Shown: positions 2-17,699, numbered from the stretch's first letter. The stretch: 20,000 nucleotides of DNA from an uncultured virus (IMG/VR IMGVR_UViG_3300027969_000081) (IMGVR_UViG_3300027969_000081), one strand, 5' to 3'. Numbers and translations: made by a program. The notes: generated by a model from the sequence alone, not told the origin.

Positions 2-343
2 GTGTTTGTATCTGGTACAATGAAATCCAAGGATAGGAAAGAAGAGTATGACGAAGTTTCAACTAGTGACAAGAAAGTTATTATCGCAACATATGGCGTC
101 GCGGCTGTCGGTATTAATATTCCTCGCATCTTTAATATGGTTCTTGTTGAGCCTGGTAAGTCGTTTGTTCGAGTTATTCAATCAATAGGACGAGGCATTA
201 GAAAAGCTGAAGATAAAGATTTTGTACAAATTTGGGATATAACCAGTACAGCAAAATTTGCCAAGCGACATTTAGCTAAACGAAAGAAATTTTACGATGA
301 TGCAAGCTATCCGCATAAAACAGAAAAGGTAATTTATAAATGA
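2..343 (+). CDS. uvsW: SF2 DNA helicase, UvsW-like, C-terminal part (5'-truncated by the window)
   Basis: Helicase motif V-like ATYGVAAVGINIP and motif VI QSIGRGIR, followed by IWDI and HLAKRKKFY, typical of T4 UvsW-family C-termini. Confidence 0.85.
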   Translation: MFVSGTMKSKDRKEEYDEVSTSDKKVIIATYGVAAVGINIPRIFNMVLVEPGKSFVRVIQSIGRGIRKAEDKDFVQIWDITSTAKFAKRHLAKRKKFYDDASYPHKTEKVIYK

Positions 344-846
344 ACATATTAACAGTAGACAATGTCACCTATGACTTAGATAGGTTACCTGATGAAATTG
401 GTGAGGATCTAAGATACGGAGTACTTGACTACAGTAATCCAGCTGATGTAGATTACATTTTTGTACCATTGGTATTTTTAGAAAGTTTTAGTTGTCCAGC
501 CGCGGTACTGCGTATTGGTAATCGAGAACTTAAAGTACCACTGGACTGGTCGTTAATTATTGGAGAACCAGATCATGGAGACCCTGAGGTAATTAACGTT
601 ATGAGTATCAACGATAGAGGATTTAGTGCATTTGTTTTTAATCCTATTAATGGTTACAAGCCAGAGTGGCATAAAGTTGAAGTAGTAAACATTTATCAAG
701 AAGTCAAATGGTATGTTCCTAAGTTAAAATTTGGACATGTATTAACTGTTCCATTAACAGCAGGTATGGACCCACCATGTGCATTTTTTCTTAAAGAGAC
801 AAATAAGATTCCTGAAGTACTTGACCTAAACAAAATTTGGTTTTAA
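340..846 (+). CDS. Conserved-looking phage hypothetical protein, beta-rich (possible degenerate Hint-like fold)
   Basis: 168-aa ORF whose ATG overlaps the helicase stop; alternating hydrophobic beta-strand pattern. Confidence 0.7.
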   Translation: MNILTVDNVTYDLDRLPDEIGEDLRYGVLDYSNPADVDYIFVPLVFLESFSCPAAVLRIGNRELKVPLDWSLIIGEPDHGDPEVINVMSINDRGFSAFVFNPINGYKPEWHKVEVVNIYQEVKWYVPKLKFGHVLTVPLTAGMDPPCAFFLKETNKIPEVLDLNKIWF

Positions 847-854
847 AATACTAC

Positions 855-1346
855 ATGGTCACTAAAAAGAAAACACCAGCATCTGCAACATACAAGCTAC
901 CCATTGAACAGGTGATGGCAGCCATAGATCTACGCAAGGGCGACTATTATAGCAATCTCAGCAACGAAGATGAAAAGTCATTAAGCACTTACATGTCGCA
1001 GAGATGGGCCAGTCAAGTACAAGGTAGTAGAGATATACAAGAACATTATTTGGTTACAATTAACGAATTATCAAATATTGATTATATTGCAACAACAAGT
1101 AAACACGAAGAGATGCGCTGGCGTGTAATGGCGTTAGTAGGCCTGGGACAAAAATTAAGACATGAGTTCATACCACCCAAGGGTGCAAAAAAGGACAAGC
1201 TGGCATCGTGGTTAATAGAACAATTTCCACAACTCAACGATGACGAGATTGAACTATTTCGAGAAGTCAATGGCATGGATGTGTTAGAAGAAATTGCTCA
1301 GGCTAAAAACATGGGTGATAAACAAGTTAAGGATTTATTTAAATAG
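855..1346 (+). CDS. Probable clamp-loader small subunit (T4 gp62-like)
   Basis: ATG at 855 preferred to the track start at 837. YMSQRWAS...INELSN...HEFIPPK resembles the gp62 pattern (Y..nR.lS...nemN...W.K); size and replication-gene context fit. Confidence 0.5.
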   Translation: MVTKKKTPASATYKLPIEQVMAAIDLRKGDYYSNLSNEDEKSLSTYMSQRWASQVQGSRDIQEHYLVTINELSNIDYIATTSKHEEMRWRVMALVGLGQKLRHEFIPPKGAKKDKLASWLIEQFPQLNDDEIELFREVNGMDVLEEIAQAKNMGDKQVKDLFK

Positions 1347-1347
1347 T

Positions 1348-2037
1348 ATGTTGGATTATCAATGTCGATTCTGCAACAAGAGTTTTACAAGAGAACGTAC
1401 ATTGAGTAGTCATATGTGTGAGCGAAAGCACAGATGGATGGCGAAAGATGATCCACCAAGCCGTATTGCTTTTAGTGTATGGATTGACTTTATGAAATAT
1501 GTCAGCCCAAACTCAAAAAAAGAAAAAAGCTTGGATGATTTTATTAAAAGTCCAGACTATATTGGATTTTTAAAATTTGCTAATTATTTGATCGAACTTC
1601 GACCAGTTGACAGTGATAAATTTGTACACTGGTTGTTTAAAATGGGAGTAAGATTGGGCGATTGGCAAAAACCTGGCACATACCAATTATATGTTCAGGA
1701 AGCTGCCAAAAAGGAGACAGCTGAAAGAGCGTTAGAAAAAACTATACTTACCATGCGAGAGTGGGGTGAGTCAACTGGAGAACCTTGGACTCAATTTTTT
1801 AATAAAATTGCACCTGCGTCAGCAATGAACATGGTAGTAATGGGCAGACTAAGTCCATGGATTATCTATTCAGCAGAGGCAGCGCAAGACTTATTAGATC
1901 GAATGGAACCGGGTCAAATTGAAACAGTTGCTAAACATGTGGATACAGAATGGTGGATAAAAAAATTAAAAACAGCGTCAGTAGAGGCACAGTGGATAAA
2001 CACGACAATGAAGCAGGTTTTAGATTTGCAGAATTAG
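1348..2037 (+). CDS. Hypothetical protein with N-terminal C2H2/C2HC-type zinc finger
   Basis: ATG at 1348, just after the upstream stop. YQCRFCNKSFTRERTLSSHMCERKH fits the YxCxxCxKxFxxxxxLxxHxC pattern. Confidence 0.7.
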   Translation: MLDYQCRFCNKSFTRERTLSSHMCERKHRWMAKDDPPSRIAFSVWIDFMKYVSPNSKKEKSLDDFIKSPDYIGFLKFANYLIELRPVDSDKFVHWLFKMGVRLGDWQKPGTYQLYVQEAAKKETAERALEKTILTMREWGESTGEPWTQFFNKIAPASAMNMVVMGRLSPWIIYSAEAAQDLLDRMEPGQIETVAKHVDTEWWIKKLKTASVEAQWINTTMKQVLDLQN

Positions 2038-2150
2038 AAGAACGACTGAAACTGCTTATTACTCGGATGGAGGCTATGACCACAGCTATGGCCGAGATGA
2101 AAGCTGAACAAGATAATTTAGTTGAATTAATTAAAAGAAAGTTGCTTTAA
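1992..2150 (+). CDS. Small coiled-coil hypothetical protein
   Basis: Fills the gap before the DnaE-like gene (TAATG coupling at 2148-2152); heptad pattern LEERLKLLITRMEAMTTAMAEMKAE. Start uncertain: GTG 1992 with GAGG upstream, or ATG 1950. Confidence 0.55.
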   Translation: MDKHDNEAGFRFAELEERLKLLITRMEAMTTAMAEMKAEQDNLVELIKRKLL

Positions 2151-2737
2151 TGAGCCAACCAGACATTGACATTGACTTTGCAAATAGAGAAGAGATTTTA
2201 AATCTATTAGACCATGTGCCTGCTATGCAATTGATGCAAAATGGTACAAAACAAAAACACAAAACTGGTGTGTATTTTCATCCGGTACCAATTAATCCAT
2301 TCACTGGTTGGTGTGAAGTGGATTATCAAACAGCTGAAGAGCTTGGATTTTTTAAAGTAGATCTGTTAAACGTTAGCCTATACCAACAAGTAAAAAGCAA
2401 AGAACATTTAGATCAACTTGCAAGCCAGGAGCCATTATGGGACCTGTTACAGCAAGATGAGTTTGTAAATCTGTTATTTCATTTAAACGGACACGGAGAT
2501 GTACTGAGAAAGACTTGCCCTACTTCTGTGGAACAATTAGCTGCCGTTCTTGGAATGATACGCCCGGCAAAACGTTATCTGATTGGAAAGCCATGGTCGA
2601 CTATTATGAAAGAAGTCTGGATTAAACCAACATCTGATGATTATTTCTTTAAAAAGAGTCACGCCACTGCTTATGCAGTTGCTATTGTTGCACAAATGAA
2701 TTTGATTTGTGAGCAAATAAGCTACGGTTATAGTTAA
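2150..2737 (+). CDS. Minimal DNA polymerase III alpha (DnaE, family C)-like catalytic core
   Basis: DnaE motifs in the correct order: PDIDIDF, KHKTGVYF, ELGFFKVDLLNV, LFHL, PTSVEQLAAVLGMIRP, YFFKKSHATAYA; only 195 aa. Confidence 0.85.
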   Translation: MSQPDIDIDFANREEILNLLDHVPAMQLMQNGTKQKHKTGVYFHPVPINPFTGWCEVDYQTAEELGFFKVDLLNVSLYQQVKSKEHLDQLASQEPLWDLLQQDEFVNLLFHLNGHGDVLRKTCPTSVEQLAAVLGMIRPAKRYLIGKPWSTIMKEVWIKPTSDDYFFKKSHATAYAVAIVAQMNLICEQISYGYS

Positions 2738-3108
2738 TCCATTCTACGTACAAGGCTAATTTGCCGCCGCTTTGTACGCTTGGTAATAACATTTGTAAGA
2801 CTAGTTTGATGGCCGTACAGTACTTCAAAGTCTTTAGTTGAATATGTCTTCAATGCGTATGAAAATCTTCGCATTGGTTCCTTTAGTACAATATTAATAG
2901 GAATTATTCGGTTTGACCCCCACCACCATTCTGCACCTACACTTAAAAATTCTGTTTTATCTAAGTCGTCCCGTAAAAGATTGTAAATATACATAGTAAC
3001 AACAACAGCATCGCTGTTTTGAATAATGCCTACAAGTTCTTGGTCGCCATAACGAACCAAACTCATAAATGGGAATCTTTCTAAGAACTCTCTAATTTTA
3101 TTGTCCAT
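2734..3108 (-). CDS. Hypothetical protein (putative late gene)
   Basis: 124-aa ORF filling a gap with no + strand gene; CTAAGTA motif 7 nt upstream of the ATG; basic C-terminus KRTKRRQISLVRR. Confidence 0.75.
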   Translation of the reverse strand: MDNKIREFLERFPFMSLVRYGDQELVGIIQNSDAVVVTMYIYNLLRDDLDKTEFLSVGAEWWWGSNRIIPINIVLKEPMRRFSYALKTYSTKDFEVLYGHQTSLTNVITKRTKRRQISLVRRMD

Positions 3109-3985: not shown

Positions 3986-4954
3986 ATGAGTCTTATTGAA
4001 TCCACTATTCGGGCACATCTGCCCATCGTAAAGTCAACAACTAACGGTTGGATGACTGTGAATTGCCCTATGTGTGTACAGAACGGGCAAGCCCGTCCTG
4101 ATACCCGACACCGTGGCGGCTTTAGATTTGATAGTGGCAAGGTGGCATATCAATGTTTTAATTGCCACATGATAACCGGATGGCACCCTGGCAGTAGATT
4201 GGGATTTAAACTAACCAAATTAATGCGGGCATTTGGCATTGACGATGGTGAGATACAACGATTAAAAATTCAACTGTGGGACCAAGTAGTTGAGGATGAC
4301 ACATTTGTTGAAGAGCCATTTAAAAAACCAAACTGGGGAGAAATTGAGTTTCCGTGGGAGATACAAGACATAACACTAGCGGCAGCAGAGTATTTGGACA
4401 GTCGCGGAGTATTAGAATTAACTGATTGGTTTACTAGTACAAGTAGCATACAAGGAATGAACAATCGTGTTATACTTCCATATGTAAGCGATGGAAAGAT
4501 TGTTGGTTATTCTGCCAGGTGGATTGGTGATGTGCCTGACAAGAAAACTGCAAAAATGATTGCAAGTAGACCATCAAACTTTGTTTTTAATCTTGATCAT
4601 CAAAATACATCTCGCAAGTATACATTAGTAGTCGAAGGCGAATACGATGCACTAACATTAGATGCAGTGGCCATAATGACTAATAATATTAGTCCAGAAC
4701 AGGCCAAAATCATTGAAGATATTGATAATGACCCAGTTATACTACCTGACCGAGATCGCGCAGGGCTACAATTAGCATTACAAGCGGCCGAATTGGGATG
4801 GTCGGTAAGTTTTCCAGACTGGCCAGATGGAATTAAAGATGCCAATCAGGCTGCTCAAGAATTTGGCAGAGTGGCCACATTACAAAGTGTGTTAACGGCA
4901 ATAGAGCACTCACCATTGAAGATTAAATTATTAGCAAGGCGGTGGTGTGTATAA
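3986..4954 (+). CDS. DNA primase (Zn-binding domain plus TOPRIM; T4 gp61/DnaG-like)
   Basis: CPMC...CFNC zinc ligands; GYSAR; TOPRIM motifs VVEGEYDAL, PDRDRAG and KDAN; two genes upstream of the replicative helicase. Confidence 0.9.
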   Translation: MSLIESTIRAHLPIVKSTTNGWMTVNCPMCVQNGQARPDTRHRGGFRFDSGKVAYQCFNCHMITGWHPGSRLGFKLTKLMRAFGIDDGEIQRLKIQLWDQVVEDDTFVEEPFKKPNWGEIEFPWEIQDITLAAAEYLDSRGVLELTDWFTSTSSIQGMNNRVILPYVSDGKIVGYSARWIGDVPDKKTAKMIASRPSNFVFNLDHQNTSRKYTLVVEGEYDALTLDAVAIMTNNISPEQAKIIEDIDNDPVILPDRDRAGLQLALQAAELGWSVSFPDWPDGIKDANQAAQEFGRVATLQSVLTAIEHSPLKIKLLARRWCV

Positions 4955-5144
4955 AATTAAACTTGATTGGAAACTTGGCCAAGATACTGACGAATGGTGG
5001 AACCATGTATGTGCATGGGCAATTGAAGAATTTGGATTACCAGGTGACACGTACAAAACAGAACTAACAGAAGATTATATGATTTTTAATTTCAACAAAA
5101 AAGAAAATGCCGCACTAATGGCCTTACGATGGGGGAATAACTAA
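4947..5144 (+). CDS. Small hypothetical protein
   Basis: 65 aa, GTG start, overlaps both the primase and helicase genes; Trp-rich (WWNHVCAWAIEEFG...ALRW). Confidence 0.7.
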   Translation: MYKIKLDWKLGQDTDEWWNHVCAWAIEEFGLPGDTYKTELTEDYMIFNFNKKENAALMALRWGNN

Positions 5145-6613
5145 TGGCAAATGATATAAAAGAATATGGCTATGAATTACAAAAACTATTTTTGGACTTC
5201 TTGGTCAGTAATAGAGACCTGGCTGCCAGATGCCAAAACGTATTAGATCCAGAACATTTTGATCGTAGGTTGCGTGCCGCGGCTGAATTTATTAAGACGT
5301 ATGTAAGTGAACATGGCAACATTCCAGATATTACACAAGTCAAAGCAACAACAAACACAGATCTTTCAAACCTAGAAACTCAGGCAATTGAACACAGCTC
5401 ATGGTTCTTAACTGAGTTTGAAGGCTTTGCAAGACACAAGGCGTTAGAAAAAGCAATCTTACAAAGTGCAGATCTGCTAGATAAGAGTCAGTACGGATCA
5501 GTTGAAAAGCTTATTAAAGAAGCAGTACAAGTTGGGTTGCCAAAGACATTTGGTACAGATTACTTTGCAGATCCAAAGGCAAGATTAGAAGCACTCAAAG
5601 ACAACAACGGACAATTGACTACAGGTTGGAAGACACTTGATGACAAACTATACGGTGGGTTTAATAGAGGTGAGTTGAATATCTTTGCAGGTGCATCTGG
5701 TGCAGGTAAGAGTTTGTTCTTACAGAACTTGGGCTTGAATTGGGCAATGGCAGGACTGAATACTGTTTACTTTTCGTTAGAACTTTCAGAGGGGTTGTGC
5801 AGTATGCGTATGGATGCTATGCTAACAGACACACCAACTCGTGAAGTATTTAAAAGATTAGATGATGTTGATCTTAAGGTTCGCATGAACGGAAAGAAGG
5901 CTGGCATATTACAAATTGTGCAGTTAACAAACGGTATTACTGCCAATGATATTTTAGCATGGGTACGAGAATTTCAAACTCAACGCAAGATTAAGGTAGA
6001 TGCCATCTTGGTTGATTACTTGGACCTAATGATGCCAGCAAGTCAAAAAATTAGCGTGAGTGACATGTTTGTCAAAGACAAGCTGGTAGCAGAAGAATTA
6101 CGTAATCTTGTGGTCACAGAACAATTACTATTAGCAACAGCATCTCAGTTAAATCGTAGTGCAGTTGAAAGTGTTGAATTTGATCATTCAATGATTGCTG
6201 GTGGTTTAAGTAAAATCCAAACAGCTGACAACGTTTTTGGTATCTACAGTACTCCTGCAATGCGAGAGCGGGGAATGGTTCAGCTTCAGTTTATGAAAAC
6301 ACGTAGTTCAAGTGCAGTTGGGCAAAAGATTGATTTGAGTTTTAATCCTGATACTTTGCGTATCAGCGATTCTACAGAAGACACTGCCCCAAGCACCTAC
6401 AGCGCCGCATCTACATACAATAAAATCCAAAGAAAAACCAATGTTGGAACCACTGTCAATACTGCATCCACATCATGGGAAAAACCAACTGGTACTCATG
6501 CATGGGATAAACCCATGGTAACATCAGAAACAACAGCCAAATCTATGCCTGTTTCAACAGGTGTGTCAGACGCAAGGAAGCAATTAACAGCAATTGTAAC
6601 TCGTGAAATCTAA
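5144..6613 (+). CDS. Replicative DNA helicase (T4 gp41/DnaB family)
   Basis: TGWKTLD, Walker A GASGAGKS, YFSLEL, Walker B ILVDYLDL, TASQLNRS, KTRSS. Confidence 0.95.
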   Translation: MANDIKEYGYELQKLFLDFLVSNRDLAARCQNVLDPEHFDRRLRAAAEFIKTYVSEHGNIPDITQVKATTNTDLSNLETQAIEHSSWFLTEFEGFARHKALEKAILQSADLLDKSQYGSVEKLIKEAVQVGLPKTFGTDYFADPKARLEALKDNNGQLTTGWKTLDDKLYGGFNRGELNIFAGASGAGKSLFLQNLGLNWAMAGLNTVYFSLELSEGLCSMRMDAMLTDTPTREVFKRLDDVDLKVRMNGKKAGILQIVQLTNGITANDILAWVREFQTQRKIKVDAILVDYLDLMMPASQKISVSDMFVKDKLVAEELRNLVVTEQLLLATASQLNRSAVESVEFDHSMIAGGLSKIQTADNVFGIYSTPAMRERGMVQLQFMKTRSSSAVGQKIDLSFNPDTLRISDSTEDTAPSTYSAASTYNKIQRKTNVGTTVNTASTSWEKPTGTHAWDKPMVTSETTAKSMPVSTGVSDARKQLTAIVTREI

Positions 6614-6889: not shown

Positions 6890-8091
6890 AAATTAAAGAA
6901 CTACAAAAAGTAAGCCTAGAAGAAGGGTTCATTGACAATTTAATTGCCAAAGTCAAAAACATGGCTGGCGAAGATGGTCCAACTGGTGTAGTTAGGGCAT
7001 TAATGGGTAACAACGCCGCTTTGAATAAATTTGCAGATACCATTGCAAATACAGCTACTCCTAAAATTACTCAGAGACTTGGTAATCAACTTAATGCTAT
7101 AAAAAATGCCTCAACTCCAGTTCCATTGAGTATGATTTACAAGCAAGTAATGCAGGTAGGTATACAGCTTGCGGCCAAAGACAACAATGAAGTAACTGCA
7201 ACTGAAATACAAGGCACTATTAGAGCAAATAAAGATGCTGTATTAAAAATGTTGCTTAATGGCTCGGTTGCAGACGATAATAGAGTTCGAGATATATTCC
7301 AAGCTATCCTGACTAACTCTGCTACAATTGATGGCGACTTTGATGTTACTATTAAAACAGTCAGTTTAATTGTTGCTGGTACTATTATTTTTATTCAAAC
7401 AGAAAAAGAAGATTCAGATTCTGAAACATCATTGGATGCTGGGTTAAAAACTAAATTTGAGCAAGAAGGCGAGCAGTTTAATAAAGAAGTACTAGATCCA
7501 ACTACTGGTATCTTTAAAACATTGAACCCAAATGAAAAATTTAAAGACAATATGGAAACTGTGATAGTTCAGCTGGTCAAGACAATTCAAGACAAATACT
7601 TGCCAATGCCAACTGATAAGTTAACATCATTGACAACAGCCGTCCCGCCATTGTTTAGTCCAGTGCAATTAAAGACACTGATTGCATCACATGACAATGC
7701 CTTGGATGCAACTGCAATTGCAACAGCACAAGATAAAATTACAGCATTGCTACAGGCTCAGTTTACTACATGGCTAGCACTGGCAGCTAAAGAATCAACA
7801 AATGGGCGTAAAGCAGACCATTCTTTTGATCTTTATAGAGAATGGGCAAAGAGTGCATTAGGCCTTATTGATAATATGAATATCAGCGGTACACAGTCAT
7901 CGGCACCAGGAACAAAGCCAAGTGATCCAGCAGTTGAAGATGCCTTTGAAAAAGCACACGACGCAGGAGAAGCCGCTCGCCGACGAGTAGTTCCAAACAC
8001 AGGTGAGAGCAACGAGGACTTTATCAACAGAGCCAATGCTGAATATGAACAGGCAAGAGTTGATTATCTAAAGGCGCACACACCACCATGA
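6886..8091 (+). CDS. Hypothetical alpha-helical protein, candidate internal head/ejected protein
   Basis: 401 aa, GTG start; N-terminus MKIKELQKVSLEEG; Ala/Thr-rich and helical. Confidence 0.7.
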   Translation: MKIKELQKVSLEEGFIDNLIAKVKNMAGEDGPTGVVRALMGNNAALNKFADTIANTATPKITQRLGNQLNAIKNASTPVPLSMIYKQVMQVGIQLAAKDNNEVTATEIQGTIRANKDAVLKMLLNGSVADDNRVRDIFQAILTNSATIDGDFDVTIKTVSLIVAGTIIFIQTEKEDSDSETSLDAGLKTKFEQEGEQFNKEVLDPTTGIFKTLNPNEKFKDNMETVIVQLVKTIQDKYLPMPTDKLTSLTTAVPPLFSPVQLKTLIASHDNALDATAIATAQDKITALLQAQFTTWLALAAKESTNGRKADHSFDLYREWAKSALGLIDNMNISGTQSSAPGTKPSDPAVEDAFEKAHDAGEAARRRVVPNTGESNEDFINRANAEYEQARVDYLKAHTPP

Positions 8092-9272
8092 AGATTTTTG
8101 AAATAGCAACACCTAAGAAAACAATGGTAGTTGAGGCCAAGTCTCGCATTGACCATCCTGAAGATATTATGTTTGATGAAAATGGTCTGGCTGGGGCACA
8201 ACGTGCGCTTTCTGCAATTGTACATTCTGCAACTGATCATGCAGGTACAACTACAATAAAATGGGACGGAAGTCCGGCAGTGATATTTGGTTGGGTTGAT
8301 AAACAGAATTTCATTGTTACAGATAAAGCAGGTATAGGGGCCAAAAAGTATAATGGGCGCCCAACCAATGCTGAGGAAGTTACAGCAATGATCTTTAATA
8401 GAAAACCTGACCAACCAGGGCGTGATGTATATGCACAGCGATTTGGGCAAGTTTATGATTTATTAAAGCGAGCAACACCAAATAGTTTAGTTGGCCAGAT
8501 GATCCAAGGTGATATGTTATGGATGGATAATTCAGATATTTCAACCACTAATGATGTTGTTAATTTTAAAGCGAACAAAATTCCATACAGCGTTGACAGC
8601 GGCATTGACCTTGGCAAGAAGATTGCCAGAAGTAAAGCAGGAATTGTTGTACATAGTGTGTTTCCCACGGTTGACGAAGCAGCCAGTGCAGAAGGAGAAC
8701 CAGTACCTACAACACCAGTTCAATTAGGTCTTAAAGATGTACCTGGCCTTGTAGTTGTAGGACCAGAAACAAAAATTGCCAGCGATGTGAAAATTAAATT
8801 ACCCAAGGCTGAGATAGAAAAAGTCAAGGCTTTAATTTCAAGCCCTGCGGCACAACGTATCAATGACATGCTAGATCCGTTTACAATTGGAAATTTAAAA
8901 ATCTCCAATTTTCCAGATATTTTTAAAAGTTTCATTAATTACAAGGCCGGACAAGGTCAAGAAATTACAAACGGTAATGCCATTGCAAATGAATTCATTA
9001 ATTGGGTAAAAGGCCCAAGCGGCTTAACAGCAAACAAACAAGAAAATGTGTTAAAACATATTAATGAGTTCAACGATGCATTCCACACAGCCTGGGACAT
9101 TGTTGCAGGGATTACAATAGTTAAACATAAAATTAAAGACCAATTGGATAAGCTATCAGGCCAAAGTCAAGATTCAATTCGAACAGCACAAGGCCACGAG
9201 GGGTTTGTATCTGCTACACCACACGGTAAAATTAAATATGTTAACCGTCCAGTGTTCATGAAAAAAGGTTAA
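8088..9272 (+). CDS. RNA-ligase-like nucleotidyltransferase-fold protein (possibly DUF6267 family)
   Basis: Motif I TIKWDG, motif III-like IQGDML, motif IV HEGFV, motif V KIKYVNR; N-terminal HPED. Confidence 0.65.
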   Translation: MKIFEIATPKKTMVVEAKSRIDHPEDIMFDENGLAGAQRALSAIVHSATDHAGTTTIKWDGSPAVIFGWVDKQNFIVTDKAGIGAKKYNGRPTNAEEVTAMIFNRKPDQPGRDVYAQRFGQVYDLLKRATPNSLVGQMIQGDMLWMDNSDISTTNDVVNFKANKIPYSVDSGIDLGKKIARSKAGIVVHSVFPTVDEAASAEGEPVPTTPVQLGLKDVPGLVVVGPETKIASDVKIKLPKAEIEKVKALISSPAAQRINDMLDPFTIGNLKISNFPDIFKSFINYKAGQGQEITNGNAIANEFINWVKGPSGLTANKQENVLKHINEFNDAFHTAWDIVAGITIVKHKIKDQLDKLSGQSQDSIRTAQGHEGFVSATPHGKIKYVNRPVFMKKG

Positions 9273-13448: not shown

Positions 13449-15767
13449 ATGGATAATCAAAACAAAATGAGTAAAAGTTCAATTTATGTCGTAAAAAGAG
13501 ATGGTCGTAAAGAGCCTCTAGACATTAATAAAATTCACCTAATGGCAGAGGAGGCCTGCGAAGGTCTAGCTGGTGTTAGTGTAAGTCAAATTGAGATGAA
13601 TGCAGATTTACAATTTCGCGACGGAATCAGCTCAGCTGAAATTCAAGAAATTTTAATTCGTAGTGCAAGTGATCTAATTAGCTTAGACAAGCCTAACTAT
13701 CAGTATGCTGCCGCTCGACTACTACTTTACGGATTGCGTAAAGATGTATTTGGACAGTTTGATTATATTCCACTGTACGAGCTGGTAAACAATAATGTTA
13801 AACGTGGAGTATATGATGCAGAGTTATTGTCTTTGTATACTGAAGCTGATTGGCGCCAACTTGATGTTTACATTAACCATGAGAGAGATCTTGATTTTAC
13901 GTATGCAGGTATGCGTCAAGTGGTTGACAAGTATCTTGTTCAAGATCGTAGTAATGGGCATATCTACGAAACACCACAGTACATGTACATGATGATTGCC
14001 GCAACGCTGTTTGCAACATATCCAGCCGACAAGAGACTAAGTTTTATTCGTCGTTATTACGATGCTATCTCTACGTTCAAGATCAACATTCCTACTCCTG
14101 TTATGAGTGGTGTACGTACACCTATTCGTCAGTTTGCTAGTTGCGTATTGGTTGATGTTGACGACACACTACCTTCAATCTTTAACAGTAGTTCCGCCGT
14201 TGGTTATTACATTGCTCAACGTGCTGGCATTGGCTTGAATGTTGGTCGTGTTCGTGCCATTAATTCTAAGATTCGCGGCGGCGAAGTTGCACACACTGGT
14301 GTTATTCCTTTCTTAAAAGTATTTGAATCTGTTGTGCGTAGTTGCACACAAAATGGTGTTCGCGGCGGTAGTGCTACAGTACACTTTCCAATCTGGCACA
14401 AAGAAATTGGCGATGTTGTTGTTCTTAAAAACAACAAAGGTACAGAAGACAATCGAGTACGACGTTTAGATTACTCAATACAGTTGAGCAAGCTCTTTTA
14501 CGAACGTTTACTTTCTGATGGTAATATTACATTGTTTTCCCCACACGATGTTCCTGGGCTGTATGAAGCATTTGGAAACAATGATGTATTTGATCCATTG
14601 TATGTCAAGTACGAAAATGATGCAAGCATTAGCAAAAAAACAGTCAAGGCAATGGCCTTGTTCGGTGAGTTGCTAAAGGAACGTGCTGAGACTGGACGCA
14701 TCTATATTATGAATATTGATCATTGCAACAGTCATAGTAGTTTTCAAGACATGGTGCGTATGAGTAACTTGTGTCAAGAAATCACATTACCAACAGACCC
14801 TATTCAAACATTAGATGATGAGAACGGTGAAATTGCTCTTTGTATTCTAAGTGCAATCAATGTAGGAAACTTACGCGAACTCGATGACTTAAAAAACTTA
14901 ACAGATTTAGCAGTTCGTGCGCTAGATCAAATTATTGATTACCAACGTTATCCAGTTATTGCCGCAGAGATTAGTACCAAGGCTCGTCGTAGTCTTGGTA
15001 TAGGTTACATTGGGTTGGCACATTATCTTGCCAAACGTGGATTTAAATACAGCGATAGTGATGCCGCGCAAGCAGTAAATCGTTTAACAGAAGCATTCCA
15101 ATTTTATCTAATTAGAGCAAGTGTACAATTGGCTAAGGAAAAAGGCCGTTGCGATTATTTTGATCGTACAAAATATGCACAGGGTATTTTACCTATTGAT
15201 ACCTACAAGCGCGATATTGATGAATTCTTAGGAACAGAATTACATTATGACTGGGAAGCCCTGCGCCGAGAAATTGCAGAGCATGGCATGCGCCATAGTA
15301 CACTATCTGCACAAATGCCAAGTGAGTCCAGCTCTGTAGTAAGCAATGAAACTAACGGTATTGAGCCTCCACGTGCGGCAATGAGTACAAAGAAATCTAA
15401 AAAAGGCCCATTGAAGCAAATTGTTCCACAGTACAATAGTCTAAAGAATTTCTATTCTTATTTGTATGAAGAAGGTGTGCAAGATGGATATGTTCGTATT
15501 GTTGCCGCAATGCAGAAATATTTTGATCAGGCCATCTCAGGCAACTGGTCGTACAATCCAAAACATTATCCAAACAATGAAGTACCAATGAGCGTAATGT
15601 TCAAAGATCTTTTAACCACATACAAGTTGGGATGGAAGACCAGTTACTATCAGAATACATATGACATGAAAGGTGAAGATGAAGATGACATTTCCAATGT
15701 ACAAGAATCTTTACAATTATTACAACCACTTGATGACGCAGAAAACTGCGAAGCTTGTACAATTTAA
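13449..15767 (+). CDS. nrdA: Ribonucleotide reductase class Ia alpha subunit with ATP cone
   Basis: ATP cone VVKRDG; PTPVM; QFASCVL; catalytic SNLCQEI; MPSESSS; KTSYY; C-terminal CEAC. Start may be 13467 (MSKS). Confidence 0.98.
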   Translation: MDNQNKMSKSSIYVVKRDGRKEPLDINKIHLMAEEACEGLAGVSVSQIEMNADLQFRDGISSAEIQEILIRSASDLISLDKPNYQYAAARLLLYGLRKDVFGQFDYIPLYELVNNNVKRGVYDAELLSLYTEADWRQLDVYINHERDLDFTYAGMRQVVDKYLVQDRSNGHIYETPQYMYMMIAATLFATYPADKRLSFIRRYYDAISTFKINIPTPVMSGVRTPIRQFASCVLVDVDDTLPSIFNSSSAVGYYIAQRAGIGLNVGRVRAINSKIRGGEVAHTGVIPFLKVFESVVRSCTQNGVRGGSATVHFPIWHKEIGDVVVLKNNKGTEDNRVRRLDYSIQLSKLFYERLLSDGNITLFSPHDVPGLYEAFGNNDVFDPLYVKYENDASISKKTVKAMALFGELLKERAETGRIYIMNIDHCNSHSSFQDMVRMSNLCQEITLPTDPIQTLDDENGEIALCILSAINVGNLRELDDLKNLTDLAVRALDQIIDYQRYPVIAAEISTKARRSLGIGYIGLAHYLAKRGFKYSDSDAAQAVNRLTEAFQFYLIRASVQLAKEKGRCDYFDRTKYAQGILPIDTYKRDIDEFLGTELHYDWEALRREIAEHGMRHSTLSAQMPSESSSVVSNETNGIEPPRAAMSTKKSKKGPLKQIVPQYNSLKNFYSYLYEEGVQDGYVRIVAAMQKYFDQAISGNWSYNPKHYPNNEVPMSVMFKDLLTTYKLGWKTSYYQNTYDMKGEDEDDISNVQESLQLLQPLDDAENCEACTI

Positions 15768-15775
15768 GGACAACT

Positions 15776-16876
15776 ATGTCAGCAACAGTTTTTAATCAAA
15801 CCAAAGTGGATTTTACTAAACAACCTATGTTTTTTGGTGAATCTCTTAATGCACAACGATTTGATACATTCAAATATCCTGTGTTTGATAAATTGACTCA
15901 AACACAATTGGGATATTTCTGGCGCCCAGAAGAAGTATCATTACAAAAAGACCGTAGTGACTATATGGACTTCCGCGATGAACAAAAGTTTATCTTTACC
16001 GCAAATTTAAAATATCAAATCTTGCTTGATTCAGTACAAGGCCGTGCCCCAGCCATGGCATTTATGCCTTACTGTTCATTACCAGAGCTTGAAGGTTGTA
16101 TGAATGCATGGCAGTTCTTTGAGAACATTCACAGTCGTAGCTATACACATATTATTAAGAACATCTACAGCAATCCAAGTGAAGTATTTGATACGTTGCT
16201 TGATGATGCCAAGATTATGGCTCGCGCAAAGTCTGTGACAAAAAGCTATGACGAATTCATTGATGCCGCTCAACAATTTACTGTAGCAGGTAAGGGAACA
16301 ATGCATGATGTCAAGACAAAATTGTTCCTGGCAATGGTAAATGTTAATGCATTAGAAGCACTTAGATTTTATGTTTCATTTGCTTGCAGTTTTGCCTTTG
16401 GCGAATTAAAGAAGATGGAAGGCTCGGCAAAGATTATTAGTTTGATTGCTCGCGATGAAAGTCAGCATTTAAGTATCACAAGTCACATTATCAAGAATTG
16501 GTTTAAAGGTGATGATCCAGAAATGCAAGAAATTGCAAATGCAAATCTTGGTGCTATTGGAGACATTTATGACTTGGTTGTCGAAGAAGAGAAAGACTGG
16601 GCCAATTATTTGTTTAGTAAAGGCGCAATTGTTGGCCTAAACGGAAAACTATTACATCAGTATGTTGAATATATTGCAAATCGTCGACTAAAGGGATTAG
16701 GTGTAGAATCGCGATACGGTCGTAGTGCTAATGACAATCCATTACCATGGACAGAACACTGGACAAGTAGCAAAGGCCTACAGGTAGCTCCTCAGGAAAC
16801 TGAAATTGAATCATATGTGATTGGTGGAATTAAACAAGATGTCAGTAAAGATACCTTCGCTGGATTCAAACTCTGA
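15776..16876 (+). CDS. nrdB: Ribonucleotide reductase class Ia beta subunit
   Basis: FWRPEEV, LLDSVQGR, ENIHSRSY (radical Tyr), LEALRFYVSF, RDESQH, VAPQETEIESY; ATG 15776 with AAGGA RBS. Confidence 0.98.
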   Translation: MSATVFNQTKVDFTKQPMFFGESLNAQRFDTFKYPVFDKLTQTQLGYFWRPEEVSLQKDRSDYMDFRDEQKFIFTANLKYQILLDSVQGRAPAMAFMPYCSLPELEGCMNAWQFFENIHSRSYTHIIKNIYSNPSEVFDTLLDDAKIMARAKSVTKSYDEFIDAAQQFTVAGKGTMHDVKTKLFLAMVNVNALEALRFYVSFACSFAFGELKKMEGSAKIISLIARDESQHLSITSHIIKNWFKGDDPEMQEIANANLGAIGDIYDLVVEEEKDWANYLFSKGAIVGLNGKLLHQYVEYIANRRLKGLGVESRYGRSANDNPLPWTEHWTSSKGLQVAPQETEIESYVIGGIKQDVSKDTFAGFKL

Positions 16877-17123
16877 CATTAACGAGCTCTATGTAATGGA
16901 ATCATGCTCGGGTTGCAAAGACTCGGCCGCACGATTATTAGAAGCTGGTGTTGAGTTTGAAACATATGACATTGAACAAATTGGTATAGAAAAGGTATTT
17001 AAATTTTGGAAACATAGACTAGGCGAATCGCCTAATTCAGTTCCTCAATTTTGGTACAAAGGCAAATACATTGGTAATAGTAAAAACATTGAAAATTTTG
17101 TAAAGGAAAAAAATGTTACTTGA
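16839..17123 (+). CDS. Glutaredoxin (NrdC/NrdH-like)
   Basis: LYVMESCSGC (CxxC), SVPQFW cis-Pro motif, GKYIG; directly follows nrdB. Confidence 0.8.
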   Translation: MSVKIPSLDSNSDINELYVMESCSGCKDSAARLLEAGVEFETYDIEQIGIEKVFKFWKHRLGESPNSVPQFWYKGKYIGNSKNIENFVKEKNVT

Positions 17124-17427
17124 TATTAAAAAAGATGGCGATGTGGTTACACTGAAAATGAGTTCAGGTGAAGAGCTTATAGGCACTTATAAAGATGATG
17201 ATGCTACATCATATACAATTGATCGTCCGGTAACATTAAGTGTTGGCCCAAAAGGTGGCCCAGCACTTACACCATATCTTATGACAGTTAATCCTGCAAA
17301 CACACGCAATTTAAAGATTAATAAAGCTCTGGTAGTGTGTATTGCAAATACAGATAAAGAGCTAGCTGGTCAGTACACGTCAGCAATGAGTGGAATTCAA
17401 GTTGCTCCAGCAGGATTTAAACTATAA
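17113..17427 (+). CDS. Sm-like fold phage protein
   Basis: GDVVTLKMSSGEELIG...YTIDRP matches the Sm1-type pattern; AAGGA RBS. Confidence 0.6.
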   Translation: MLLDIKKDGDVVTLKMSSGEELIGTYKDDDATSYTIDRPVTLSVGPKGGPALTPYLMTVNPANTRNLKINKALVVCIANTDKELAGQYTSAMSGIQVAPAGFKL

Positions 17428-17699
17428 TGCCGGCCGCACATAGATTAGACGATCCAGACGAAGCAGGCGCCTCAATTACTAGCATTCCTCAAGGTACTGT
17501 TTTTATCAACAATCAATTGGCCAGTATTGACGGAAGTGATGTAGCAGGTCACGCCCCGGGCGTACATAGCAGTCCGCAAACGGCAAACGGCAGTCCGACT
17601 GTGTTTATTACAAATATTCCAGCAAATAGACAAGGCGATGCTGATACATGCGGACATCCCAGGGCAGAAGGTAGCCCAGATGTATTCATAGGGCCATAA
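17427..17699 (+). CDS. PAAR-repeat tail spike tip protein (T4 gp5.4-like)
   Basis: MPAAHRLDD, TVFINNQLASIDG, GSPTVFITNIPANRQGD, CGH...GSPDVFIG. Confidence 0.9.
   Translation: MPAAHRLDDPDEAGASITSIPQGTVFINNQLASIDGSDVAGHAPGVHSSPQTANGSPTVFITNIPANRQGDADTCGHPRAEGSPDVFIGP

Follow-up and report, generated by a model that had tools for sequence, protein, structure and literature searches.

Results

Genes and motifs at the locus

The window, that is, the whole stretch of 20,000 nucleotides that was analyzed, comes from the 50.5-kb record of an uncultivated freshwater phage, ~15% complete according to CheckV. The record encodes a T4-type tail sheath and terminase and a T4-type replication and recombination set comprising gp32, UvsX, UvsY, a UvsW-type helicase, a primase, and DnaB; ribonucleotide reductase and RNA ligases are also encoded. 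An intact ORF of 195 aa is located on the plus strand of the window at 2150-2737. The original prediction had read this ORF as a minimal family C (DnaE) polymerase core, and translation bore out its description: each listed motif was found at its residues (KHKTG at 36-40, LFHL at 109-112, GMIRP at 135-139, and YFFKKSHATAY at 165-175), and the protein begins three residues ahead of PDID. The features of the locus are as follows.

1950..2150, plus strand: putative small upstream ORF, 66 codons from its first ATG, with a TAA stop that overlaps the polymerase ATG
2150..2737, plus strand: likely gene for the aspartate-bearing and template-binding C-terminal half (C-half) of a split minimal Pol III alpha (ORF; phrog_11778; DnaE profile matches; AF2 model; PolC/DnaE fold; dN/dS)
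2159..2179, plus strand: PDIDIDF strand, P4-F10, with catalytic D5 and D7, plus D9 (aligns with SMPDIDIDF within Mycobacterium tuberculosis DnaE1 412-424)
2258..2269, plus strand: H37-K-T-G40, counterpart of the DnaE HxxG turn after the deleted thumb (conservation)
2354..2368, plus strand: K69-V-D71-L-L, third catalytic aspartate and adjacent lysine (aligns with GLVKFDFLGL, Escherichia coli DnaE within 538-641)
2558..2575, plus strand: I137-R-P-A-K-R142, basic finger motif, equivalent of ALFRPG (aligns with LFRPG, E. coli DnaE ~637-641)
2648..2674, plus strand: F167-KKSHATAY175, counterpart of the DnaE finger motif GFNKSHSAAY (aligns with E. coli DnaE 740-769)
2734..3108, minus strand: convergent 124-aa gene, phrog_11637 (E 1.2e-30), whose stop overlaps the polymerase stop
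3986-4954, plus strand: primase (Toprim, phrog_47, DnaB_C, and phrog_19 matches for the primase-helicase block 3986..6613)
within 3986..6613, plus strand: 65-codon ORF between primase and helicase
5144-6613, plus strand: DnaB-type helicase (same matches for the block)

The upstream ORF's stop, TAA at 2148-2150, and the polymerase ATG at 2150 have one A in common, giving a TAATG overlap; use of an alternative in-frame ATG at 2067 would shorten this putative ORF to 27 codons. A small ORF abuts or overlaps the start of the C-half gene in phages Phosso and 121Q too. Strain variants seen in two further metagenome runs, one with T>A at 2148 and the second with A>T at 2149, both abolish the upstream TAA; because the next codon is TGA, TAATG becomes ATGA and a stop-start overlap is retained. 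At the other end of the gene, the stop (2735-2737) overlaps that of the convergent 124-aa gene. The +2 frame of the window contains a stop at gene nt 309 followed by 54 open codons (gene nt 312-473; window 2461-2623), and this frame is stop-free for 56-94 codons in 28 of 33 relatives (L009-L087), at ~nt 200-500 of the gene; the openness may follow from the conserved protein.

The gene order C-half, convergent small gene, virion protein, primase, and DnaB is common to the window, 121Q, and Phosso, and the latter two phages share the upstream part also, with a UvsW-type helicase followed by several genes and then the C-half. The order C-half, primase, and DnaB is kept from enterobacterial Rak2-like phages to the freshwater phage. 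In the window, three conserved genes (phrog_11279, phrog_11758, and phrog_11058) occupy 340-2037 (plus strand) between the UvsW-type helicase and the C-half and could be further replisome parts. The phrog_11058 gene encodes a 247-aa protein with an N-terminal C2H2 zinc finger, and its ESM Atlas matches are viral clusters only; the Atlas entry for this protein begins at residue 19, pointing to 1348 as the start, and with that start the previous ORF would no longer be overlapped. Elsewhere, the window encodes a DUF6267 protein (8088-9272), a class Ia ribonucleotide reductase pair with a glutaredoxin-like ORF (13449-17123), and a PAAR protein (17427-17699). Upstream of the window, an RNA ligase and a radical-SAM gene lie between UvsY and the UvsW-type helicase (C1:24167-26432 of the record). 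When the whole window was compared with phage records by megablast, only a stretch of nrdA was matched (70-74% identity).

Homology and fold of the 195-aa protein

The protein matched phrog_11778 ("DNA polymerase") over its full length in PHROGs (E 2.4e-61; residues 3-189 against positions 6-194 of the 197-position profile), a family whose name is silent on a split and on which part of which polymerase family it represents. No Pfam match, PF07733 included, was found for the ORF at E ≤ 10, and the best NCBIfam match scored 16.9 bits against a cut-off of 434 and covered a 14-residue patch only. A phmmer search of PDB sequences returned three collinear patches on M. tuberculosis DnaE1, with ORF residues 2-14, 51-140, and 158-177 matching 412-424, 564-663, and 769-787, respectively. 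A family alignment was then assembled from the window protein and 81 near-full-length proteins, picked from at least 150 representatives and sharing 28-57% identity with the window protein. The profile of these 82 members matched nine PDB DnaE sequences (E 9.4e-6 to 8.9e-5); the sole other rows of this search were two MoaE sequences at E 0.9, and PolC gave no sequence-level match in it.

The AlphaFold2 model of the C-half, made from the family alignment, had a mean pLDDT of 96.6. Foldseek ranks 1-17 were all Pol III alpha or "DNA polymerase" entries. In VIA, the 15 best rows were of the PolC/DnaE type, three of them carrying the title "DNA polymerase" alone, with Z 6.0-9.8 and 185-191 residues aligned; the next fold scored Z 3.2. 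The best match was PolC of Geobacillus kaustophilus (3f2b; Z 9.8, rmsd 3.3 Å, 189 residues over 969-1299), and E. coli DnaE (2hnh) was matched with Z 8.9 (188 residues over 398-784). Conservation, profile, and fold all identify the Pol-β-like palm with three catalytic aspartates that characterizes a C-family polymerase. The 195-aa protein is genuinely homologous to the palm and proximal fingers of these enzymes.

The structure alignment also defined what has been cut away. The C-half starts opposite E. coli DnaE 398 and ends opposite 784, with no counterpart of the PHP domain or of anything past residue 784, a region that presumably consists of the clamp-binding, HhH, OB, and tau-binding domains. 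The clean internal deletions described in the original prediction are real: 39 residues (15-53) replace E. coli DnaE 412-537, which reportedly holds the thumb, and 11 residues (141-151) replace the 98 residues of 642-739, a finger segment that we take to bear the arginines that bind dNTP. Since that segment is absent, together with its presumed dNTP-binding arginines, templated synthesis is not assured. Several features that mark a single-chain C-family polymerase are lacking from the C-half chain, i.e., the GRGS loop, the PHP domain, the thumb, the full fingers, and the clamp-binding and OB domains, and the protein falls below the PF07733 gathering score.

Conservation and selection

Residues D5, D7, K69, D71, and P139 are invariant in all 82 members of the family alignment, and at least 90% of them retain D9, H37, G40, R138, K141, K168, and H171. 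Among 34 closer relatives, twelve checked positions (D5, D7, D9, H37, and G40 among them) are kept in every protein, and R138, P139, K141, and R142 are invariant. Substitution rates were estimated with 33 relatives, leaving out near-duplicates and partial copies; synonymous sites in this set are mostly saturated. For the window against the relatives, dN/dS was 0.024-0.19 in 11 of the 33 comparisons, and the 55 pairs with 0.05 < dS < 1.5 gave a median of 0.109 and a maximum of 0.261. The C-half gene is under strong purifying selection.

The boundaries of the protein are equally constant. In all 58 related loci examined, out of at least 80, the protein begins 0-3 residues ahead of PD(I/V)D, with an in-frame stop 3-117 nt upstream of the match. 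Matches at E ≤ 1e-3 were obtained from 7455 metagenome clusters (90% identity) with lengths of 107-342 aa, and of 167-199 aa among the 120 listed. Contigs from four of four other metagenome runs, representing three studies, bridge position 2150 without an indel. No RNA run was among the sequencing runs listed for the gene.

A separate gene for the N-terminal half

The motif missing from the C-half was found in relatives. PF07733 scored above its cut-off at one place each in phages 121Q and Phosso and in three relatives with a completeness of at least 86% (G001, G002, and G003); the N-terminal halves (N-halves) of the relatives scored 38-46.5 bits against a cut-off of 23.9. In all five genomes the N-half is a separate ORF of 155-185 aa; in the E. 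coli phage 121Q the N- and C-halves measure 180 and 212 aa. N-halves contain an invariant WG(V/L)GRGSS and end in ...KY.L.I.EF(I/L/F)(R/K), e.g., ...KEFIR. The N-half profile aligns with E. coli DnaE 318-392, ending ...LLFERFL, and the C-half takes over from 398, which places the break within about five residues before PDxD. The two genes are separated by 15 kb in XacN1, 31 kb in 121Q, 44 kb in PA5oct, ~199 kb in G001, and 224 kb in Phosso. The halves occur together: 88 phage records match the N-half and 96 match the C-half, the tallies by host genus are almost the same for the two, and both are present in each of the three relatives at least 86% complete. The C-half of G001 is 83-84% identical to that of the window.

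The original prediction had supposed a split mini-Pol III with its GRGS part encoded elsewhere in the phage, to be sought as an ORF containing G.GRGS. The separate N-half gene of 121Q, Phosso, and the three relatives agrees with this proposal; the same search came up empty for the phage's own 50.5-kb record (~15% complete), where neither PF07733 nor the N-half profile identified an N-half. That absence is expected if the gene lies past the fragment ends, and the partner of the window's C-half is accordingly inferred from relatives.

A natural fusion of the halves may be represented by P0215 (375 aa), in which an N-half (...GVGRGSS...KEFIK) is joined through a 10-residue linker to a C-half (DFDID...). 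This protein is a singleton cluster on a 2.4-kb contig and therefore counts for little, being either a rare true fusion or an error. Three further candidates were rejected. The first ~160 residues of P0391 (350 aa), considered as a fusion, lack GRGS and resemble an over-called upstream frame; P0218 (1386 aa, 18 matched stretches) is a tandem-repeat protein with a spurious match; and P0252 (233 aa) matches over residues 5-109 only and has an unrelated tail, so it was left out.

The surroundings of the N-half gene are also partly conserved. Past one short ORF or gap, it is followed at four of four loci by a conserved ORF (108-127 aa) that contains a G(R/H)WSR motif and by eye recalls a GroES or gp31-type co-chaperonin:

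L090, 729-1103, minus strand: G(R/H)WSR ORF
L089, 1993-2352: G(R/H)WSR ORF
L088, 2002-2385: G(R/H)WSR ORF
L007, 2163-2489: G(R/H)WSR ORF

Predicted complex of the two halves

An AlphaFold-multimer prediction of the fragments had been suggested as a check, and the halves were indeed predicted to dock. The modelled pair was drawn from two related phages, the N-half from G001 and the C-half from the window, and gave a median ipSAE of 0.91 over three runs, against 0.00 for the best control; 116 of 157 solved complexes attain that mark, as do 2 of 215 mismatched pairs. The three runs agreed in at least 94% of contacts, with partner pLDDT of at least 89. Modelled alone, the N-half had a mean pLDDT of 67 and was poorly ordered around residues 131-160 (57-75). 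In the predicted complex, the N-half strand before GRGS (132-135; W134/G135) would lie against C-half residues 8-10, and N-half residues 142 and 160-162 would touch C-half residues 168-174, i.e., the KSHATA motif. Because the complex resembles the interior of solved DnaE, the high score may reflect memory of the DnaE fold and does not count as independent evidence of binding.

Distribution and the family B polymerase

Homologues of the C-half occur in 96 isolate phage records, almost all of them jumbo phages; carriers include the 121Q/PBECO4/K64-1/GAP32/CBB group, PA5oct, Atu_ph07, XacN1, SCTP-2, and Phosso. The original prediction had pointed out that a family B polymerase (PolB) would be expected in an otherwise T4-like replisome. 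None was found on the 50.5-kb record (~15% complete); G001, G002, and G003 each contain a PolB open frame of 892-906 aa that matches PF00136. The presence of full-length PolB in three near-complete relatives indicates that the mini-enzyme is added to PolB and is no substitute for it.

Discussion

The ORF at 2150-2737 is likely to be the C-terminal half of a two-gene minimal C-family DNA polymerase that is typical of one group of jumbo phages. The C-half would supply β-strands with the metal-binding residues D5, D7, and D71, the lysine K69, and a reduced finger subdomain (R138, K141, K168, and H171). The N-half, ~170 aa long and encoded at a distance, would contribute the N-terminal, helical portion of the palm together with the GRGS loop, by which the triphosphate of an incoming nucleotide is held. 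With the chain broken near E. coli DnaE 393-398, between ...FERFL and ...PDxDxDF, the halves are predicted to dock by pairing one strand each, which would rebuild a single Pol-β-like nucleotidyltransferase palm. It is highly likely that this heterodimer forms.

Other readings of the same gene were weighed. A length about one-sixth that of bacterial DnaE, and a C-half to which Pfam is blind, are what a decaying remnant of a full-length dnaE would show, or a full-length gene hidden by an assembly error. Decay should be visible as variable truncation, unconserved aspartates, and a dN/dS near 1, and an assembly error as a full-length dnaE concealed at the locus; none of these was found. Instead, dN/dS is ~0.1 (with saturated synonymous sites), the three catalytic aspartates are invariant, length and start are the same in the 58 loci, the cluster matches listed stay within 167-199 aa, independent contigs from three studies bridge the start, and the search for longer forms gave a single protein of 350 aa, in which the additional part is no N-half. 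The constant boundaries, the bridging contigs, and the low dN/dS exclude decay and assembly error as far as sequence data can do so, in line with the original argument against random decay, and we regard this explanation as extremely improbable. An intact 195-aa protein could still be a repurposed metal-binding enzyme that needs no GRGS half, a view that draws on the lack of an N-half on its own record and on the confident fold of the C-half modelled by itself. That record, however, holds ~15% of the genome, and where relatives are at least 86% complete both halves are there, and over phage records, 88 against 96, the two are distributed almost alike. The first strand, with D5 and D7, is moreover predicted to pair with an N-half strand, and a Pol-β-type palm without a GS loop is not known to have any activity, which also speaks against a solitary enzyme. 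This second alternative, raised in the original prediction, found no support and appears very unlikely.

If the heterodimer forms, it might still be something other than a templated polymerase: a terminal or untemplated nucleotidyltransferase, a maker of nucleotide signals, or a silent scaffold in the replisome. The palm belongs to the broad Pol-β nucleotidyltransferase fold, which leaves room for such functions; the thumb and the 98-residue finger segment (E. coli 642-739) are missing, and a literature search returned neither a bench test nor a measured activity for any member of the split enzyme. Against this, the RP and KSH motifs, which in DnaE serve template and incoming nucleotide, are kept in at least 90% of the 82 members, the sequence and fold relatives found are replicative C-family polymerases only, and the gene shares a conserved block of replication genes with primase and DnaB. 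The invariant aspartates argue against a silent scaffold in particular. A nonpolymerase heterodimer is thus judged unlikely, and template-directed DNA polymerase activity of the pair is predicted as the somewhat better than even expectation. Without PHP, thumb, outer fingers, clamp-binding, and OB domains, the two-chain polymerase would be expected to be distributive, non-proofreading, and template-dependent.

Its task beside a full-length family B polymerase is a matter for tentative proposals. The leading candidate is a short-patch job at the primosome, either primer extension or gap filling, which we consider possible but doubtful. The conserved order of C-half, primase, and DnaB would fit a primer extender. 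More speculative still is the idea that the pair, at ~365 aa in two chains and lacking thumb and proofreading, is the smallest natural C-family DNA polymerase and serves as a Pol-alpha-like primer extender of the primosome that hands over to PolB. If true, such a two-chain primer extender would establish what the minimal catalytic core of the bacterial replicase family is. The phage protein family itself is very common, with 7455 metagenome clusters at 90% identity in addition to the isolate phages, and in the passages of the literature that our search brought up it is known from one paragraph of comparative genomics. A minimal two-chain C-family polymerase would be useful for learning what the DnaE core does without accessory domains. 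For the window gene, an annotation as C-terminal subunit of a split minimal Pol III alpha is proposed.

Compared with bacterial DnaE (E. coli 2hnh/5fku, Thermus aquaticus 3e0d, and M. tuberculosis 5lew), the phage protein shares the aspartate triad, the lysine by the third aspartate, HxxG, RP, and KSH. Bacterial DnaE is, however, ~1160 aa long with GRGS on the same chain, whereas the C-half has ~195 aa and the GRGS-bearing part of the palm is on another polypeptide. The best structural match of the C-half, PolC of Firmicutes (G. kaustophilus 3f2b), has ~1400 aa in one chain, into which an exonuclease is inserted. A possible functional analogy is offered by Bacillus subtilis DnaE, a primer-extending helper of PolC and hence a C-family enzyme with a short job beside the main replicase; that DnaE is full length and unsplit, in contrast to the two-chain phage enzyme.

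The closest known system is itself a phage module. A split minimal Pol III alpha was reported in group 2.2 jumbo phages by Iyer et al. 2021 (Viruses 13:63, PMC7824862), consisting of an N-terminal NTP-binding protein and a C-terminal Mg- and template-binding protein that are encoded by distant genes. As presented in that account, the module is confined to phages and found beside a family B polymerase, and a role in the synthesis of one strand or in repair is proposed. Atu_ph07, which is named there as a member of group 2.2, has homologues of both halves. In the relevant passages of the genome papers on RsoM2USA and AP-J-162, "DNA polymerase III" subunits appear as annotation labels only, and the split polymerase treated in a 2026 preprint is the family B enzyme of chimalliviruses. 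The small stand-alone C-terminal unit of the 2021 description, with Mg-chelating aspartates and a template-binding subdomain, is what the window encodes, as a 195-aa protein with D5, D7, and D71 that spans the equivalent of DnaE 398-784. Iyer et al. also suggest that cores of this sort came before the large cellular enzymes, an idea that would gain a tractable model if the primer-extender proposal were true. The present system is the one that Iyer et al. had defined by sequence comparison in 2021 and is not a new kind of enzyme; set against the published paragraph, it shows no difference in kind, and what sets it apart is its source, a fragment of an uncultivated freshwater phage whose N-half and PolB would lie off the record.
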